From Escherichia phage APECc02, in sequence record NC_041869.1: a DNA stretch of 64,000 nt; one strand, 5' to 3'. This document shows, one piece after another, positions 36,562 to 45,832 of this stretch. How positions within the stretch are numbered: the first letter of the stretch is position 1; each line of letters begins with the position of its first letter. Made by a program: the position numbers and the translations under genes. The notes below the pieces were generated by a model, which was not told where the DNA came from, made no database searches, and saw only the letters and a program-made list of their open reading frames with translations.

Positions 36562-37845
36562 TCATTCCAGAACCTCCCAAGTATCTGGGTTAACATTTCG
36601 GACGCAGATACCGACAGGGAATTGGTAGTTGTTGTCTTCTGTCCTTGCTTGATATTTGAAGGTGACAAACTTGCCGATCATTTCCTGCATCCTGTCATAG
36701 CTACGCTCCTCGTGCGTGCCTTTCATCTTCATTTTAACAACAACACCTTCCTTGTCAACACAGATAAGAACACCTTCATCATTCTTATCTTTCTCAACGT
36801 CAATAACTTTCACCTCTGCGTCGTTGAACTTTTTCCATTTCAATGCTTCAGATGTTCGCTGACCATACTCATATTTACCACAGAAGTTACGCATAATGGT
36901 ACCTTCATATCCTTCAGACATAAATATACCAACAGACTCTTCGCACCGATCAACCGTATATGCAAGCTCTGCATCAACAACCTTAATATGATCAAGCATC
37001 AAAGAAGTAATAGCACCGTTTGCCTCCATAAGATCCTTACAGCGACCAGACTCTGTTTCAGGATCCCACCACACCTTATCGCTAGGAATATCGAAAATAT
37101 GATACTCTAAGTCGTAGCTGCAGTACCCTCCGTAACGCAAATCATCACGAACAGGCTCAACATCAACAGGAATGTCCACCTTGTTGAAGTTTTTGTATGT
37201 TGCTAAACCTGCTTTAATCGCAGCCTGACGGCGTTTTTTATCTGCCTTGTAGTCTTTATCGATCTCGGCCTGAATTTCTTCCTGTGTGCGCCACCGTTTA
37301 GCAAGAGACACTATTTTCTGCAGAGGCAGACCATGAATATAGAGCTCTCCGTCGAGCTGTTTAATCCCGGTGGTTAGGTGGAAAGAGCGAAGTTGCTCCA
37401 GAAGCTTTCCTTGAATAGGGTAGGACTTATTACCACGGGAAATAAATTTAGGCTCACCATTCTGGAAAACAACAAGTAGACGAAGGCCATCTAACTTACG
37501 CAAGATCCAGCAAGGTAATTTAAGTGCCTTGCCACGCTTCAGGTAGTCATGCACCAACATGGGTAAAAGATCAACACCTTGCTCACAATCTTCCATACTC
37601 TCCACGTACCCGAGTCGGACCTGTTTTTCCCACTTACTGATCGCTTCCAGCTCGGCCTGTTGCTCAGCTGTAGTTTCATTGGCGCGACCCACGTTCTTAG
37701 GTGTGCAGATCGTCTCTTTGTATTGCAGTTTACCATCAAGCTTGCCAAACTCTACGATAACCTTATCACCATCCGTGAATACTTTCCACTGTTGGTAGCT
37801 GCCATCTTTGTTCAGTGCGTACAGTGTTGTTTTGATTTGATGCAT
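36562..37845 (-). CDS. ATP-dependent DNA ligase
   Basis: adenylation motif I KLDGLR, motif IV-like EGYEGTIM, motif V KWKK. Confidence 0.8.
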   Translation of the reverse strand: MHQIKTTLYALNKDGSYQQWKVFTDGDKVIVEFGKLDGKLQYKETICTPKNVGRANETTAEQQAELEAISKWEKQVRLGYVESMEDCEQGVDLLPMLVHDYLKRGKALKLPCWILRKLDGLRLLVVFQNGEPKFISRGNKSYPIQGKLLEQLRSFHLTTGIKQLDGELYIHGLPLQKIVSLAKRWRTQEEIQAEIDKDYKADKKRRQAAIKAGLATYKNFNKVDIPVDVEPVRDDLRYGGYCSYDLEYHIFDIPSDKVWWDPETESGRCKDLMEANGAITSLMLDHIKVVDAELAYTVDRCEESVGIFMSEGYEGTIMRNFCGKYEYGQRTSEALKWKKFNDAEVKVIDVEKDKNDEGVLICVDKEGVVVKMKMKGTHEERSYDRMQEMIGKFVTFKYQARTEDNNYQFPVGICVRNVNPDTWEVLE

Positions 37846-38114
37846 TACTCGGCCTCTTCCTTAAAAATTTTAAACATCTCTTCTTTACTCATTACCAACC
37901 AGTCCCCCATAAAATCAACAAGCCAATCACCCTGGTACAAGACTAGGTTACCAAACGGCTCTACAAGCTCACACATGCGACGAAGATCTCTGGTCCGAAC
38001 AGGTGACGATGTAAACACACCTGTATCAATCCACCGTTGCAGATCAGATACTGATGAAGAGCTTCCGTCAAACTGGTGTGCTTCTACAGGTTTAGCAAGA
38101 TTAAATAACGGCAT
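37845..38114 (-). CDS. hypothetical protein
   Basis: ORF co-oriented. Confidence 0.45.
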   Translation of the reverse strand: MPLFNLAKPVEAHQFDGSSSSVSDLQRWIDTGVFTSSPVRTRDLRRMCELVEPFGNLVLYQGDWLVDFMGDWLVMSKEEMFKIFKEEAE

Positions 38115-38439
38115 TGCAGTCCTCCTTATCTAATAGATCTTTTATTGGGTAAACAAGCAGGTGTGGATCGTAATAATTTATAGTTTTATTCTGCCACACT
38201 ATGAACTTAATTACAACTAAATTTACCACATCTTTATCTCCATGTAGTCCAACACACAGATTTGTCCATATTTTGTGGTTGAATACTTTGCTGTCGATGT
38301 AGATCTTAGTGTCAAACTTATCCTCTATCCTGCCTATAAGTTTAACCAACTCTTTCATCTGATCCCCAAACACAGCATCGTTTTCAAGATCTCTAGAGTG
38401 CTTGTACATAACTATCTGCCTCACTTGCATACTTTCCAC
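38101..38439 (-). CDS. hypothetical protein
   Basis: ORF co-oriented. Confidence 0.45.
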   Translation of the reverse strand: MESMQVRQIVMYKHSRDLENDAVFGDQMKELVKLIGRIEDKFDTKIYIDSKVFNHKIWTNLCVGLHGDKDVVNLVVIKFIVWQNKTINYYDPHLLVYPIKDLLDKEDCNAVI

Positions 38440-38472
38440 AACAAGTAAAGCCGGGTAATCCCGGCCATGTTG

Positions 38473-39186
38473 TTAAATATACTCTGCTACATCCTTGAAG
38501 CTCGAAGGCTTCATGATCTTACCTTTACTGTCAAGGAATATGATAACTTTATTACCGTTGTAGAATTCTTCCTTAGCAACAAAACCTTCATATCGACCAT
38601 CAAAGCGTCGCTCAAGATCTTTAATCTCCAACTCTATGAGTTGTTCAGCAGGCATATCTGCACTGGCACCGTGTGAATACCGTAGATGGTTGACCCGTGC
38701 AAACTTGCTGTCATTCGATTTGAGAACCTTACGCATCATCCCGCACACATCGCCGCGAAGCTGGAACAGCAAAGCTGTTGACAACTCCGCTAAACGGTAA
38801 GCTGACGCTCTTTGCTTGGATGTGTTTTTCGCAGCGATCAGTGTGTCATAGAACTCACCGATCTTGAACTTAAGACCTTGTGGATTATCAAACAGGTTTG
38901 ACCACTTTTCGTGATTGTCATTAACAAGATAAGCTGCATAACTTGTGACAACGTGAAGATCGCAGGCCTCCTTTAGCAGGTGATCTCCACCATCACCTTT
39001 CTCCAGCTCTTCCAAAACTTCATTGAACTCTTCCTCAATGAAGCTAAGCTGTAATTCGAATGGTGTGTATGATTTTTTCACTTTAGCTGCCACACGGTTC
39101 CAGTTTTCCACCCAGTTGGCAGACCAAAGGTAGTTTTCAGGTTGGGATAGTTTTTCCAGGTTGTCAATTAATTTAGTATTCAGCAT
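38473..39186 (-). CDS. hypothetical protein, possibly MazG-like
   Basis: acidic helix EEEFNEVLEELEKGD; weak. Confidence 0.3.
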   Translation of the reverse strand: MLNTKLIDNLEKLSQPENYLWSANWVENWNRVAAKVKKSYTPFELQLSFIEEEFNEVLEELEKGDGGDHLLKEACDLHVVTSYAAYLVNDNHEKWSNLFDNPQGLKFKIGEFYDTLIAAKNTSKQRASAYRLAELSTALLFQLRGDVCGMMRKVLKSNDSKFARVNHLRYSHGASADMPAEQLIELEIKDLERRFDGRYEGFVAKEEFYNGNKVIIFLDSKGKIMKPSSFKDVAEYI

Positions 39187-39199
39187 TAAAGGTCTCCTT

Positions 39200-39961
39200 T
39201 TAAAGTTCCATAAAGTTTTCTACAGTCTCAATGAATGTTTTATCAGAGAAGGCATCAACCGCACCGTTAAACCAAACTGGGATGCCGCGATCCTCATACT
39301 GGTAAATATCACTACGTGAAATGCCATTCTCCTCTAGATGCTGTGAGTCGTATTTATTAACGATCAGTAGTTTGGTTCCCTTATTGCAGGCAGGGAATAG
39401 CTCCCAGTTAAAATTGATAACTGTGTTGGAGCACCCTACAAGGATAACCATATCATTGCTCGTAAGAGAAGTCAACAGGTCATACATGTCTGTATACTTC
39501 GGAGCTACTTCTCCGAAGAACACCACATTAGGCTTAACCCAGGTATACTTTCCTGCGTCTACCTCAGAGTATCCAATGTCCTTAATGACGTCACTTCCTT
39601 CATCGTCCTCATAGACTATTTCTGGCAAATACCCGTGGACATGTAAAATATCTTCATGTTTTACACCAGCACGCTCCAGCAAATCATCTACATTGGTGGT
39701 AAGGTTGATCACACGACCAGACCAGCGGGAATACCACTCAGCGATCCGAAGATGTGCAAGGTTAGGCTCAACACTGCCTAAAGCTACACGACGTGCATTG
39801 TAAAAGTCATGCACCTTATAGTAGTTCTTGGCAAAGGTGTGGATGTTGCACACCTCATCGATGCTGAAATTCTCCCACATTGCAGTGCTACCAGATCGGA
39901 AAGTGGGAATACCAGATTCAGCGCTCAAACCAGCACCGGAGATAATAATCAGTCGTCGCAT
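39200..39961 (-). CDS. Sir2 (sirtuin) family NAD-binding protein, lacking canonical Zn-binding Cys pairs
   Basis: SGAGLSAESGIPTFR, LHVHG, VVFFGE, ILVGCS motifs. Confidence 0.75.
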   Translation of the reverse strand: MRRLIIISGAGLSAESGIPTFRSGSTAMWENFSIDEVCNIHTFAKNYYKVHDFYNARRVALGSVEPNLAHLRIAEWYSRWSGRVINLTTNVDDLLERAGVKHEDILHVHGYLPEIVYEDDEGSDVIKDIGYSEVDAGKYTWVKPNVVFFGEVAPKYTDMYDLLTSLTSNDMVILVGCSNTVINFNWELFPACNKGTKLLIVNKYDSQHLEENGISRSDIYQYEDRGIPVWFNGAVDAFSDKTFIETVENFMEL

Positions 39962-39969
39962 AAGTGTCC

Positions 39970-40320
39970 TCAGTAGATGTTTTGTTTAATCTCTATTCCA
40001 AACTTTTTAAACGAGTCAGCTGCAAGCATGAATTTACGAGCCGCTGATGGGTTAGAAGTATGCACGAAAATCTTCACGTTGTCAACTACAGGAGGCTTAC
40101 CAAATACAAATTTTTCCTCTAGGATGCAGAAGCAATCGTATCCTTCAAAAATTTCTCCCAAGTCGCTGTCAAAATGCCACTCAGAAACTCGTCTATAAAG
40201 CTTTCTCTTGTCATTGATGAAATCCATAAACTCAGAAGAGTTCTTCAGCCAAAGAGCATCTTGGAGCCCGTAATTTGACGGATCTCTCAAGTCATCCAGC
40301 CACACAATCAACTTCTTCAT
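39970..40320 (-). CDS. hypothetical protein adjacent to Sir2-like gene
   Basis: ORF co-oriented; no motif recognised. Confidence 0.45.
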   Translation of the reverse strand: MKKLIVWLDDLRDPSNYGLQDALWLKNSSEFMDFINDKRKLYRRVSEWHFDSDLGEIFEGYDCFCILEEKFVFGKPPVVDNVKIFVHTSNPSAARKFMLAADSFKKFGIEIKQNIY

Positions 40321-41252
40321 TGCATATAGTCCTCGTTGTGGAAATAGTAGTCAAGTATCTCGCGGCGTTCCTGCTCAAGGAGACAGTTCCACACATCTTC
40401 TGTGTAATTGCTACGAATGAAGTTTACCATGCCGTAAAACTCTTCGTCAACACGTTTAAAGATATCCTCATCCCAAATCTTCCAAGCTTTACCTCTCATT
40501 ACGGCCTTCCGTGCCAAATAGTACGGAGACTTGATCTTCAGCTGCAGATCATAAGGGTAGTAAGGCTTACGAATCATATACCCTTCACCTCTTGTTTCTG
40601 CAGCTAATTCTTTTGCATAACTGAACGGAATTTCACGCACAGTGTGAGGACGTTTTGCACCAAGGTATTTGGCAATCCCATCTAAAGCTGCCTCTGGTAG
40701 CATTATTCCAGAATCATTATATCTGCAACCTATCAAATATGCGCCATGATCTTCCTGAACAATATGCGGATCTGAAGGGTGACAAATTTCAAACATGAAT
40801 GTCATGTTTTCATTGCCCATAACCTTCTTGATAAGATCTAAATTACCACATTGCTCCTGGATGGTTTCCTTTGCGAGGTTACAATATGGAGAATCAAGAG
40901 ATCCGGTTGTTGAGAACAATAGTTCACCTTTATGAGAGGATACCACACCAAGGAATCCGTTCTTTTTCTCTACCGCCGTCACAAGCTTATTGTCAGGCAG
41001 GTTGGTGGAGTTTTCTCCCAAGTTAAACACTTTTGTGAAGGGCCATGCCACAACATTTCCTTCATTACCGACAACAATGCCTCGGCACTCCAGTAAACGA
41101 GGGGACAAATGCCATAAATTGTTGTAAAATACTTTTCTGGCATATTTATAGATCTTTAACCCAAGATCCGGGTAATATCTACTGGTTACAAGACCTTTGT
41201 CAACTAGGTCGTCTGCATTAAAATACTTCATCATACGTTCCTCATTTGTCAT
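40317..41252 (-). CDS. RNA ligase 1 (T4 RnlA-like)
   Basis: LLECRGIVV, FTKVFNLGEN, KKNG adenylation motif, LLFSTTGSLDS match T4 Rnl1 blocks. Confidence 0.8.
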   Translation of the reverse strand: MTNEERMMKYFNADDLVDKGLVTSRYYPDLGLKIYKYARKVFYNNLWHLSPRLLECRGIVVGNEGNVVAWPFTKVFNLGENSTNLPDNKLVTAVEKKNGFLGVVSSHKGELLFSTTGSLDSPYCNLAKETIQEQCGNLDLIKKVMGNENMTFMFEICHPSDPHIVQEDHGAYLIGCRYNDSGIMLPEAALDGIAKYLGAKRPHTVREIPFSYAKELAAETRGEGYMIRKPYYPYDLQLKIKSPYYLARKAVMRGKAWKIWDEDIFKRVDEEFYGMVNFIRSNYTEDVWNCLLEQERREILDYYFHNEDYMQ

Positions 41253-41295
41253 TTTGTCAGTCTATCCTGCCACACAAATAACCTAGTGTCAACAC

Positions 41296-41324
41296 TTGAA
41301 ATTAACAAAACAGTTAGGTATACT
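41296..41324 (+). promoter_or_regulatory. sigma70-type promoter (TTGAAA-N17-TATACT)
   Basis: hexamers read directly; upstream of kinase gene. Confidence 0.5.
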
Positions 41325-41352
41325 ATCGTTGAAATTAAAACGGAGTATTACT

Positions 41353-41763
41353 ATGTCTAAAATGCTATATATCGTGCGTGGTCTACCAGGGTCTGGCAAA
41401 TCAACACTGGCAAATGCGCTATCTTTAGAAGGTCTGTATCCACATTTTGAGAACGACATGTTCTGGTACGACGATGATGGAAATTACAACTGGGATGCAA
41501 GTAAAGTAACACTTGCAGCAAAATGGTGCAAAGATAACGTAGAAGATATGATGCGTATGGGATACGACCGTATCGTGGTAAGTAATACGTTTACAAAAGA
41601 AAAATATGTGCAAGAATATATTGACATGGCGATCAGTCATGGGTATAGTTATACCGTGATCGTGGTTGAAAACCGCCATGGTAATAAAAGCATTCATGAT
41701 GTTCCAGACAGGGTTGTGGATCGTATGGAACGCCAGCTTAAAAATTGCATTAAACTTAAATGA
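41353..41763 (+). CDS. polynucleotide 5'-kinase (T4 Pnk kinase-domain-like)
   Basis: Walker A GLPGSGKST; start taken at MSKMLYIV with GGAG RBS. Confidence 0.65.
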   Translation: MSKMLYIVRGLPGSGKSTLANALSLEGLYPHFENDMFWYDDDGNYNWDASKVTLAAKWCKDNVEDMMRMGYDRIVVSNTFTKEKYVQEYIDMAISHGYSYTVIVVENRHGNKSIHDVPDRVVDRMERQLKNCIKLK

Positions 41764-41770
41764 GGAATGT

Positions 41771-42325
41771 ATGAAATACTTTGTAACAAGCGACACACAC
41801 TTTCTCCACCAGCGGGTCATGGAGTTCGACTCATGTCAAAAACACAGATCTCAGTATGATCACAATCTTGACAGTATGAATGCGGGAATCATCACCGAGT
41901 GGAACTCTGTTGTGTCACCTGCAGACACTGTGTTCCACCTGGGAGATATTGCGTGCACTAATGATAAGAATATCAACAAATTGCTCCCAGATGTTCTAAA
42001 TATGTTGAACGGACATATTATTCTTGTTCGTGGTAACCATGACACAAGGACGACTGTCAGAATTATGAAAGAGTTCGGTCATGAGGTTGTAGATTATTAC
42101 GAGCTTCGCCACAACAAGAATTTGATCTGTATGAGCCATTACCAGTTTGCAAAGTGGAACAGAAAGCCTCACGGATCAGTCCAACTGTTCGGTCATGCTC
42201 ACGGAACCACACAGCAGTTGTTTGGCAGGCAGTTTGATGTCGGTTGGGATGTGTGGGGGAGACTCTTACCATTAGAAGAGGCATACCGTATTGCAATGAG
42301 TCTTGCTATTGACAGCGGGGAGTAA
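41771..42325 (+). CDS. calcineurin-like metallophosphoesterase
   Basis: DTHF, GD, GNHD motifs; start at MKYFV with GAGGA RBS. Confidence 0.65.
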   Translation: MKYFVTSDTHFLHQRVMEFDSCQKHRSQYDHNLDSMNAGIITEWNSVVSPADTVFHLGDIACTNDKNINKLLPDVLNMLNGHIILVRGNHDTRTTVRIMKEFGHEVVDYYELRHNKNLICMSHYQFAKWNRKPHGSVQLFGHAHGTTQQLFGRQFDVGWDVWGRLLPLEEAYRIAMSLAIDSGE

Positions 42326-45539: not shown

Positions 45540-45630
45540 TGAGGGTAGGGAGCAATGGTGCTCAAGCGGTCTTGAAAACCGTCCCGTTGAGGATGACTCG
45601 ATGATGGTTCGATTCCATTACCCTCAGCCA
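45540..45630 (+). tRNA. tRNA-Ser (anticodon TGA), long variable arm
   Basis: anticodon loop CTTGAAA, long variable arm, T-loop TTCGATT; 5' boundary uncertain by 1 nt. Confidence 0.65.
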
Positions 45631-45728: not shown

Positions 45729-45825
45729 GCTAGGTAAGCCCTTTGGCAAGGGCGAGGATTTTTAATCCTGAAAATAGACGAGGTAGTCGTTGAATACATA
45801 GGTGGTTCGATTCCATCACCTAGCA
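45729..45825 (+). ncRNA. atypical tRNA-like element (acceptor and T-arm intact; possible TTT anticodon; ~31-nt variable region)
   Basis: GCTAGGT/ACCTAGC acceptor pairing and GGTTCGATTCC T-arm, but non-canonical middle. Confidence 0.3.
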
Positions 45826-45832
45826 CCTTTTT

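Follow-up and report, generated by a model that had tools for sequence, protein, structure and literature searches.

What might a sirtuin contribute among the RNA-repair genes of a bacteriophage? This question is raised by a small gene island in Escherichia phage APECc02 (NC_041869.1). The island lies in a stretch of 64,000 nucleotides of that record, which was analysed as a whole and is called the window below. A sirtuin (Sir2), an RNA ligase, a cyclic-phosphate-processing receiver-like (cREC) domain protein, a kinase, a MazG-type pyrophosphatase, and a phosphoesterase are all encoded inside 3.9 kb of the window:

38473-39186, minus strand: all-alpha nucleoside triphosphate (NTP) pyrophosphohydrolase (MazG/dimeric-dUTPase-like), 237 amino acids (aa), with a C-terminal beta-hairpin extension
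39200-39961, minus strand: zinc-less class-III-like sirtuin (Sir2), 253 aa (PF02146; phrog_2162; AlphaFold2/Foldseek)
39970-40320, minus strand: cREC domain protein, 116 aa (PF20274, E=1.7e-13)
40317-41234, minus strand: Rnl1-family ATP-dependent RNA ligase, 305 aa (start of the longest open reading frame (ORF) at 41252; PF09511; hhalign against T4 RnlA)
41353-41763, plus strand: stand-alone P-loop polynucleotide-kinase-like protein, 136 aa (AAA_33, E=2.7e-10; phrog_505 'polynucleotide kinase', E=3e-10)
41771-42325, plus strand: calcineurin-type metallophosphoesterase of the YfcE/PdeM-like branch, 184 aa (Metallophos_2, Metallophos, phrog_547)

Family membership and synteny suggest that the core of this island is very probably a phage system for the end-healing and sealing of RNA (tRNA). 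The full explanation, which adds to this repair a KptA-like branch run by the Sir2, is a tentative one and falls somewhat short of an even chance. Both the neighbourhood and the hypothesis are already known, from routine annotation and from a published in-silico system with this phage type as its prototype. The same neighbourhood was described by Iyer, Burroughs, Anantharaman and Aravind in 2022 (PMC9503650, section 3.7.3), where the prototype is 'Escherichia phage V5'. In that study the sirtuin was proposed to be KptA-like and to remove a 2'-phosphate, while its partner enzymes would open the cyclic phosphate or process ADPr>P (ADPr, ADP-ribose). The other configurations of that study (jumbo-phage and T5-like SP15) were independently recovered here. 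No experimental study of a phage sirtuin, and no follow-up of the KptA-like proposal, was found in the literature.

The probable RNA healing and sealing core

An initial annotation of the window had placed a Sir2-like ORF near an RNA ligase 1, with a Pnk-like kinase and a calcineurin-type phosphoesterase transcribed divergently from them. The ORF boundaries given there were all confirmed, and the three enzyme families were recovered. The ligase matched PF09511 (E=6e-15; 56 bits against a cut-off of 28.3 bits). It also matched TIGR02308 (E=3e-10), at 39.6 bits against an equivalog cut-off of 242 bits. Its relationship to the T4 enzyme was established by hhalign against T4 RnlA from GenBank, which aligned residues 36-251 with residues 33-249 (probability 96%, E=1.7e-9); PDB searches with the single sequence and with an eight-sequence profile gave no match. 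The residues K96-K-N-G99, F154-E155, E223-G224, K239/K241, R57, and K74/F76 are invariant in eight homologues and align with the T4 RnlA motifs. The catalytic motifs of T4 Rnl1, namely I (KxxG), III, IV (EG), and V (KxK), together with the upstream Arg and the Lys/Phe, are thus all represented. The protein consists of the nucleotidyltransferase domain only; the alignment ends at T4 residue 249, and the C-terminal all-helical tRNA-binding domain (about residues 255-374 in T4) is absent. The start at 41234 is based on homologues and on the annotation of the sister phage WalterGehring.

The kinase contains GxxGxGKST (here GLPGSGKST), ExD (E-N-D), and ENRHGN motifs, which are invariant in 12 homologues. 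By their likeness to the 5'-kinase domain of T4 Pnkp, these motifs would provide its P-loop, catalytic Asp, and lid Arg. The 136-aa protein comprises the kinase domain only. Identity with a fused Pnkp was rejected, since the C-terminal HAD (DxDxT) 3'-phosphatase domain is absent. A PDB sequence search with the kinase returned nothing useful. The kinase matches positions 2-109 and the ligase positions 440-686 of one and the same profile, phrog_8238, an indication that a relative with fused kinase and ligase exists.

The phosphoesterase matched Metallophos_2 (E=1.4e-6; 28.9 bits against 27), Metallophos (E=4.3e-6; 27.7 against 21.5), and phrog_547 (E=8e-52). Its best PDB match was Aquifex aq_1665 (1xm7; E=6e-11), which is itself uncharacterised, and weak matches to PdeM and YfcE were also found. 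The metal-binding motifs are complete in the translation (SDTHF, LGDI, RGNHD, SHY, and GHAHG).

Together, the kinase, phosphoesterase, and ligase would supply every activity required to heal and seal RNA with 2',3'-cyclic-phosphate and 5'-OH ends. The likely task is the repair of tRNAs, of the host or of the phage, which host anticodon nucleases or toxins have cut to leave such ends. The 136-aa kinase would phosphorylate the 5'-OH; the metallophosphoesterase, possibly with the cREC protein, would open or remove the cyclic phosphate; and the Rnl1-family ligase would seal the break. This is the logic of T4 Pnkp-Rnl1, with a separate metallophosphoesterase in place of the fused HAD phosphatase. 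The assignment of 3'-end healing to that separate enzyme, already suggested in the initial annotation, gains some support from the recurrence of the trio in other phage genera, even without Sir2. Confidence in this core pathway, as predicted from the enzyme families, is high.

The zinc-less sirtuin and two small partners

The Sir2 protein matched PF02146 (E=3e-27; 96 bits against a cut-off of 24 bits) and phrog_2162 'Sir2' (E=9e-110). The expected motifs are intact: GAGLSAESGIPTFR (9-22), TTNVDD (87-92), H109-G110, FFGE (148-151), GCS (176-178), and VN (201-202). Cysteines occur at positions 38, 177, and 192 only. The zinc module, with two Cys pairs between HG and FGE, is therefore missing, as residues 107-152 are free of Cys and the clade conserves none in this segment. 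The equivalent segment of E. coli CobB has four Cys, and the cellular homologues that were compared contain CxxC...CxxC there. A Sir2 fold with NAD (nicotinamide adenine dinucleotide) motifs and without the zinc-binding Cys pairs, as first proposed for this ORF, is thereby supported. Loss of the catalytic His would have spoken against the proposal; His109 is kept in 29 of 29 phage homologues.

These 29 homologues (50-62% identity) also share the GAG..SG..FR NAD loop, Y54/R57, N90/D92, H109-G110, FFxE, GxS, and N202. Two further traits mark the clade. The canonical TQNxD is replaced (TTNVDD in the window protein), with the Gln of TQN changed to Thr or Ser in the 29 homologues and the remaining SIR2-family motifs all present, and an invariant SNxVINFxW(E/D)LFP segment follows the GxS motif.

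Among solved structures, SIRT5 and E. coli CobB are nearest to the Sir2 sequence (E about 2e-21). Its LHVHGYL aligns with the catalytic LEIHGSL, and its FYNARR with FYHYRR of SIRT5 and FYNARR of CobB, so that the class-III YxxR pair is present. The NCBIfam CobB models match far below their cut-off (122.7 against 243 bits). Structure prediction, which had been suggested for this ORF, gave an AlphaFold2 model (predicted local distance difference test score, pLDDT, 87; predicted template-modelling score, pTM, 0.86) that retains three beta-strands in the zinc-module segment. The model superposes best on E. coli CobB (Foldseek E about 1e-18, template-modelling score 0.74-0.83), followed by SIRT5, Sir2Tm, and Sir2Af. 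By these features, the window protein is a zinc-less sirtuin of class III type that looks otherwise complete. It is probably active on a negatively charged group, because the catalytic His and the invariant anion-binding YxxR are kept.

Other identities were considered for this protein. A defence-type NADase Sir2 was rejected, since there is no PADLOC match and the structure is deacylase-like; among the PADLOC defence-type Sir2 models nothing was significant (best PDC-S65, E=0.0076 over 34 residues). The window protein consists of one domain, without the fused sensor domains (SLOG, HerA, and others) of the defence types. A recent capture of the host cobB was also rejected, as the identity to CobB is only about 32%. 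The fold is that of Sir2 and not the ADP-ribosyltransferase (ART) fold of the PTS_2-RNA domain, which places the protein outside the Tpt1/KptA family; a Tpt1-like action could nevertheless be possible.

The 116-aa and 237-aa neighbours, described at first as unannotated, proved identifiable. The smaller one matched PF20274 at 51.4 bits against a 27-bit cut-off. Its receiver-type residues D9, D10, D51/D53, T88, S89, and K96 are invariant in 13 homologues, and there is no two-component-type kinase near the gene. It is predicted to be a metal-independent phosphoesterase. A 2021 jumbo-phage paper of the same authors (PMC7824862) had defined the cREC domain and predicted that it acts as a cyclic-phosphate phosphoesterase. 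An exhaustive cREC profile search yielded 940 cluster representatives at E<=1e-3, mostly stand-alone and about 110 aa long. No second Pfam domain was detected in ten longer cREC-containing proteins. The 237-aa protein has a four-helix all-alpha core with EExxE and ExxD metal-binding motifs, as expected of the all-alpha NTP pyrophosphohydrolase superfamily; whether it is part of the repair system is uncertain. Word-indexed protein searches with the cREC and 237-aa proteins returned close phage relatives only, and no informative fusions.

Arrangement and distribution of the island

An 8-kb query around the island matched 122 GenBank phage records. In 111 of these, 80% or more of the query is spanned by one match, with identities of 90-99%, and the island ORFs are therefore not due to chance. 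The top matches are Escherichia phages slur16 and slur12 (98.6% identity), and on this basis the window belongs to an rV5-like myovirus (Vequintavirus; Vequintavirinae).

The minus-strand unit runs in the order RNA ligase, cREC, Sir2, 237-aa pyrophosphohydrolase, and hairpin. The ligase stop overlaps the cREC start as ATGA; the gaps are 8 bp ahead of Sir2 and 13 bp ahead of the 237-aa gene, with Shine-Dalgarno sequences at both. On the other strand, kinase and phosphoesterase are spaced by 7 bp, and a TTGAAA-17-TATACT site lies upstream of the pair. Three further features were recorded:

36562-37845, minus strand: ATP-dependent DNA ligase (DNA_ligase_A_M and OB_2), tied to the cluster in other genera
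38449-38466, minus strand: terminator-like hairpin, G+C-rich with a T-rich tail (GGCCGGG-ATTA-CCCGGCT plus TTACTTGTTG), directly 3' of the 237-aa gene; consensus match only
41296-41324, plus strand: candidate sigma-70-like promoter ahead of the kinase, in the intergenic region between the divergent genes (TTGAAA, 17-nt spacer, TATACT; 10/12); consensus match only

The hairpin is likely to be the end of a putative ligase-cREC-Sir2-pyrophosphohydrolase transcription unit. GC skew changes from about -0.12 to +0.13 between positions 40000 and 42000 or so, and its sign flips at the divergent promoter region between ligase and kinase, where the coding strand also switches. Between the DNA ligase and the pyrophosphohydrolase (37845-38439, minus strand) are two short conserved ORFs, one of 89 aa and one of 112 aa. 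They have no Pfam match and accompany the cluster in other genera (protein clusters c48 and c47).

The annotation of WalterGehring lists, in this order, a DNA ligase, three hypothetical proteins, a 'sirtuin domain NAD-dependent deacetylase', a hypothetical protein, an RNA ligase, a polynucleotide kinase, a putative phosphoesterase, and a transcriptional regulator, followed by a tRNA array. In the window, a tRNA array is 3 kb from the island, and a tRNA-like gene of 97-99 nt (45729-45827, plus strand) lies 3.4 kb away; its WalterGehring counterpart is annotated as a 97-nt tRNA-Lys. ARAGORN gives it a four-base anticodon, and the Rfam tRNA model scores only 35.5 bits. Read by eye, the loop UUUUUAA gives the anticodon UUU (Lys), and about 30 extra nucleotides form a variable-region hairpin (minimum free energy -34.2 kcal/mol, z=-3.7). 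PrrC and PARIS classically target tRNA-Lys(UUU), and the oddly built copy near the RNA-repair island may be relevant. ARAGORN also calls a tRNA-Ser(UGA) at 45540-45630 (plus strand); the equivalent WalterGehring stretch, from tRNA-Tyr to tRNA-Lys, is unannotated. Among the rV5-like records are 18-25 unannotated GenBank entries (MG0656xx) named 'Campylobacter phage' (host C. jejuni), which are 93-100% identical to the E. coli rV5-like phage. In one of them, C11, the Sir2 is identical to that of the window. The C. jejuni host labels of these records look doubtful.

Homologues of the Sir2 clade occur in about 1000 phage records (rV5-like, T5-like, phi92-like, Mydovirus, and jumbo phages). The neighbourhoods of 76 IMG/VR loci encoding Sir2 relatives were fetched and compared. 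Fourteen of them are Mydovirus/SSE121-like loci (140-150-kb phages), with a Sir2 44-58% identical to that of the window. In these, the phosphoesterase, ligase, kinase, DNA ligase, and pyrophosphohydrolase lie about 4 kb or less from Sir2, and most have cREC too. The gene order differs from the window, and all the genes are co-directional. The DNA ligase adjoins Sir2 in these Mydovirus-like loci, and is found within 2-7 kb of it in 16 of the 76 related loci. In three Erwinia-phage-like loci (L042, L052, and L055), a conserved 161-aa protein (cluster c115) without a Pfam match lies between kinase and Sir2, in the cREC slot, and could be an analogous replacement of cREC.

Other carriers show different settings. 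In 31 T5-like loci, Sir2 follows nrdD; a HAD_SAK_2 'Swiss-army-knife RNA repair' phosphatase (E=7e-19) is encoded two genes downstream, and then two DUF7415 genes. In the phi92-like phages, DUF7275/7277 genes surround Sir2, and a lambda-phosphatase-like enzyme is encoded 4-5 kb off. The jumbo phage Kaldavass (Erwinia) encodes NMNAT-Nudix, NadV, several further genes, a 2H/Acb1-like phosphodiesterase, a Zn-binding protein, Sir2, a Nudt16-like Nudix::cREC fusion, and PIN::PhoH. The Kaldavass 2H protein (L083, 5275-5721) is annotated as an 'RNA ligase', and its best score is to the Acb1 anti-CBASS phosphodiesterase (PF23474, E=2e-15).

The trio of phosphoesterase, ligase, and kinase is also found in the Pakpunavirus PaoP5 (Pseudomonas) and in the phi92-like Escherichia phage 'outra', in each case near a DNA ligase and NAD-salvage genes. 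Ribose-phosphate pyrophosphokinase is a neighbour of the core both in PaoP5 and in a Klebsiella phage (L084); PaoP5 additionally has NadV there, and the salvage neighbour in 'outra' is nicotinate phosphoribosyltransferase. The 'outra' core also adjoins a 10-tRNA array. In cells, the nearest relatives of the phage Sir2 are ordinary zinc-binding CobBs with at most 40% identity, with a single exception in Marinobacterium.

Possible roles of the sirtuin and relation to known systems

For the Sir2-like protein and its 116-aa and 237-aa neighbours, the initial annotation had suggested a possible NAD-linked counter-defence role or a modification of RNA or protein. In the reading favoured here, the zinc-less sirtuin would be an RNA 2'-phosphotransferase, a Rossmann-fold analogue of Tpt1/KptA. 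Sir2 would cleave NAD+ and move the ADP-ribose onto the phosphate remaining on the RNA. Whether before ligation or after it, the target would be the 2'-PO4 left once the cyclic phosphate has been opened to 2'-P/3'-OH. The ADP-ribose cyclic phosphate would then be opened by cREC, and the ADP-ribose remnant split by the pyrophosphohydrolase (a Nudix enzyme in jumbo phages). The chemistries of sirtuins and Tpt1 are parallel: an oxygen nucleophile attacks C1'' of NAD, and then the ribose 2''-OH attacks. The mechanism of Tpt1 is described in PMC11417386.

This KptA-like model was adopted as the most explanatory one because it accounts for the recurrent coupling of Sir2 to cREC, to 2H or HAD_SAK enzymes, and to pyrophosphatases. 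The family assignments of the six proteins, their operon-like packing, phrog_8238, and the Mydovirus-type loci argue for it. It is also consistent with the recurrence of the Sir2-cREC link in Kaldavass, with HAD_SAK_2 two genes from Sir2 in the T5-like phages, with the tRNA array 3 kb off, and with the published prediction (PMC9503650). True KptA homologues were found in 98 phage records, none of them from lineages in which this ligase and Sir2 occur together. Such a distribution fits a functional substitution, and is no proof of one. In two jumbo phages, the neighbourhoods of true KptA contain one radical-SAM protein and otherwise no Pfam matches, so that a displacement of KptA by Sir2 is not directly demonstrable there.

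Several observations weigh against the favoured reading. The PaoP5 core is without Sir2 and cREC, and no Sir2 is annotated in about 19 kb around the 'outra' core; RNA sealing is therefore evidently independent of Sir2. In the 31 T5-like loci, the largest carrier group sampled, there is no such ligase or kinase within 10 kb of Sir2, and the sampled ligase matches include no T5-sized record. Both the sequence and the predicted structure of Sir2 are closest to the true protein deacylases CobB and SIRT5, with the acidic-acyl pocket retained. The protein is acidic (pI 4.8; clade median 5.2), without an obvious basic RNA-binding character. A zinc-less TTNVDD-type sirtuin, 42% identical, is encoded on a Marinobacterium chromosome (metagenome-assembled genome; L085, 7920-8732) in a plain metabolic context. 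It is flanked by a sodium symporter and a GGACT-family gene, with leucine dehydrogenase-like, MetE, and LysR genes close by and no phage or RNA-repair genes around it. The 237-aa protein resembles dimeric dUTPase most, and the annotation of WalterGehring, in the parts covered (all but about 24 kb, 20,001-44,199), names no dUTPase; it may therefore be the dUTPase of the phage and belong to plain nucleotide metabolism. Because of the sealing without Sir2, the T5-like loci without the ligase, the deacylase likeness, the low pI, the Marinobacterium relative, and the possible dUTPase, the 2'-phosphotransferase step itself is doubtful, and confidence in an NAD-consuming Sir2 side branch, which is suggested by context, is low. 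Functional data are available for the syntenic Vequintavirus Bas54 from the HIDEN-SEQ preprint. All six counterparts (bas54_0206 to bas54_0211) carry many transposon insertions in E. coli K-12 (mean counts 88-406), and they are undepleted in the single other-host comparison of the supplement (log2 fold change +0.13 to +0.43, q>=0.75). The six island genes are thus dispensable in the Bas54 conditions used.

Alternatively, Sir2 could deacylate protein lysines in an NAD-dependent manner, as an enzyme of the CobB/SIRT5 type with a preference for acidic acyl groups through YxxR. It would remove acetyl or succinyl moieties from proteins of the phage or its host, which might, for instance, restore the activity of translation or metabolic enzymes when cells grow slowly, and it would lie beside the RNA-repair genes merely as a fellow accessory early gene. 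The CobB/SIRT5 likeness with invariant catalytic residues and Y54/R57, the ordinary CobB proteins as closest cellular relatives, the Marinobacterium member, the T5-like carriers, and the core without Sir2 in other genera all point this way. Nudix-type enzymes also degrade O-acyl-ADP-ribose, and the annotation of WalterGehring includes a ribosome hibernation factor, a hint of dealings with dormant hosts. However, this explanation gives no account of why, in three independent phage lineages, Sir2 is repeatedly and tightly linked to cREC, 2H, HAD_SAK, and pyrophosphatases. The loss of the zinc ligands and the change from TQN to TTN in every phage member suggest an altered substrate site, and the host already has a CobB. 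A deacylase role has only a modest chance of being the right answer. In another alternative, Sir2, cREC, and the pyrophosphatase would form a small-molecule module, making or destroying NAD/ADP-ribose-derived or cyclic-nucleotide molecules to counter host immune signalling or NAD-targeting defences, with the ligase, kinase, and phosphoesterase a separate system nearby by chance. In Kaldavass, a small Zn-binding ORF separates Sir2 from the Acb1-like 2H gene upstream of it (two genes away), Nudix::cREC is directly downstream of Sir2, and NadV and NMNAT-Nudix are 2-5 kb upstream. The NAD-salvage genes (Prs, NadV, and nicotinate phosphoribosyltransferase) flanking the ligase cluster in PaoP5, 'outra', and the Klebsiella phage agree with such a module, as does the view, argued in PMC9503650, that phage ADPr-processing domains target mainly soluble ADPr derivatives. 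A sirtuin, though, cannot itself degrade cyclic ADP-ribose (ADPR)-type signals, because a nicotinamide leaving group is needed. Moreover, no NAD-salvage gene is annotated in the covered parts of WalterGehring, there is no match to a PADLOC defence model, and no anti-defence sirtuin was found in the literature. A small-molecule module is improbable.

Some sirtuins are ADP-ribosyltransferases, and Tpt1 enzymes are able to cap 5'-phosphates with ADP-ribose. Sir2 might accordingly ADP-ribosylate RNA or DNA ends (as a 5'- or 3'-phosphate cap) or protein, and so mark or protect broken nucleic acid or inactivate a host nuclease. The link of the cluster to the ATP-dependent DNA ligase would agree with this, and so would the weak resemblance of the phosphoesterase to PdeM, a partner of DNA-ligase repair operons. 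There is no linked Macro, ARH, or NADAR eraser, as was also stated in PMC9503650, and the distribution of Sir2 is as much of an objection here as it is to the 2'-phosphotransferase. This role is very improbable.

Sirtuins are known as protein deacylases, as ADP-ribosyltransferases, and as NADases in bacterial immunity. If the KptA-like reading were true, a sirtuin would for the first time have been shown to use a nucleic-acid phosphate as its substrate instead of an acyl-lysine, a new substrate class. The rV5-like and related phages would then run a tRNA repair of the fungal and plant style, with healing, sealing, and NAD+-dependent removal of the 2'-phosphate. Phages would have rebuilt the eukaryote-type 2'-phosphate chemistry of tRNA splicing with unrelated folds. 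The approximately 1000 carrier phages include model phages and therapy candidates, and a role against tRNA-cleaving or NAD-linked defences would bear on their host range.

Among known systems, T4 Pnkp and Rnl1 counter the anticodon nuclease PrrC. The island shares with them a 5'-kinase, a 3'-end-healing phosphoesterase, and an Rnl1-family ligase whose catalytic residues align with those of T4 RnlA. However, the kinase stands alone here (136 aa), and the phosphatase is a separate metallophosphoesterase instead of a fused HAD domain. The window ligase lacks the C-terminal tRNA-binding domain, is about 25% identical, and scores far below the equivalog cut-off, whereas T4 lacks the Sir2, cREC, and pyrophosphatase partners. 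In the Pnkp(-Hen1) system of Clostridium thermocellum, RNA healing and sealing likewise involve a P-loop kinase, a calcineurin-type metallophosphoesterase, and an adenylyltransferase/ligase. These are domains of a single polypeptide there, with a phosphoesterase that is lambda-phosphatase-like; the island has a separate gene for each, its phosphoesterase is of the aq_1665/YfcE/PdeM branch, and no Hen1 methyltransferase was seen.

The class III sirtuins CobB and SIRT5 share with the phage Sir2 the fold, the NAD-binding loop, the catalytic His, and the YxxR acidic-acyl pocket. The phage protein differs in the absence of the zinc Cys, in TTNVDD, in the SNxVINFxW(E/D)LFP segment, and in its position next to RNA-end-processing genes. 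The proposed logic is similar to the fungal and plant pathway from Trl1 (cyclic phosphodiesterase-kinase-ligase) through Tpt1/KptA to Appr>p: a 2'-PO4 would be formed, a kinase and an Rnl1-type ligase would act, and removal by NAD+ and clean-up would follow. For the proposed NAD-dependent step, the phages would use a Rossmann-fold sirtuin instead of the ART-fold Tpt1, and the proposed cyclic phosphodiesterase would be cREC or the metallophosphoesterase instead of a 2H enzyme. The closest comparison is with the type 2 sirtuin-centred neighbourhood of PMC9503650 (prototypes Escherichia phage V5 and Proteus phage Mydo), a computational prediction. Its component list is identical, without structural difference, and the island of the window is the same system.

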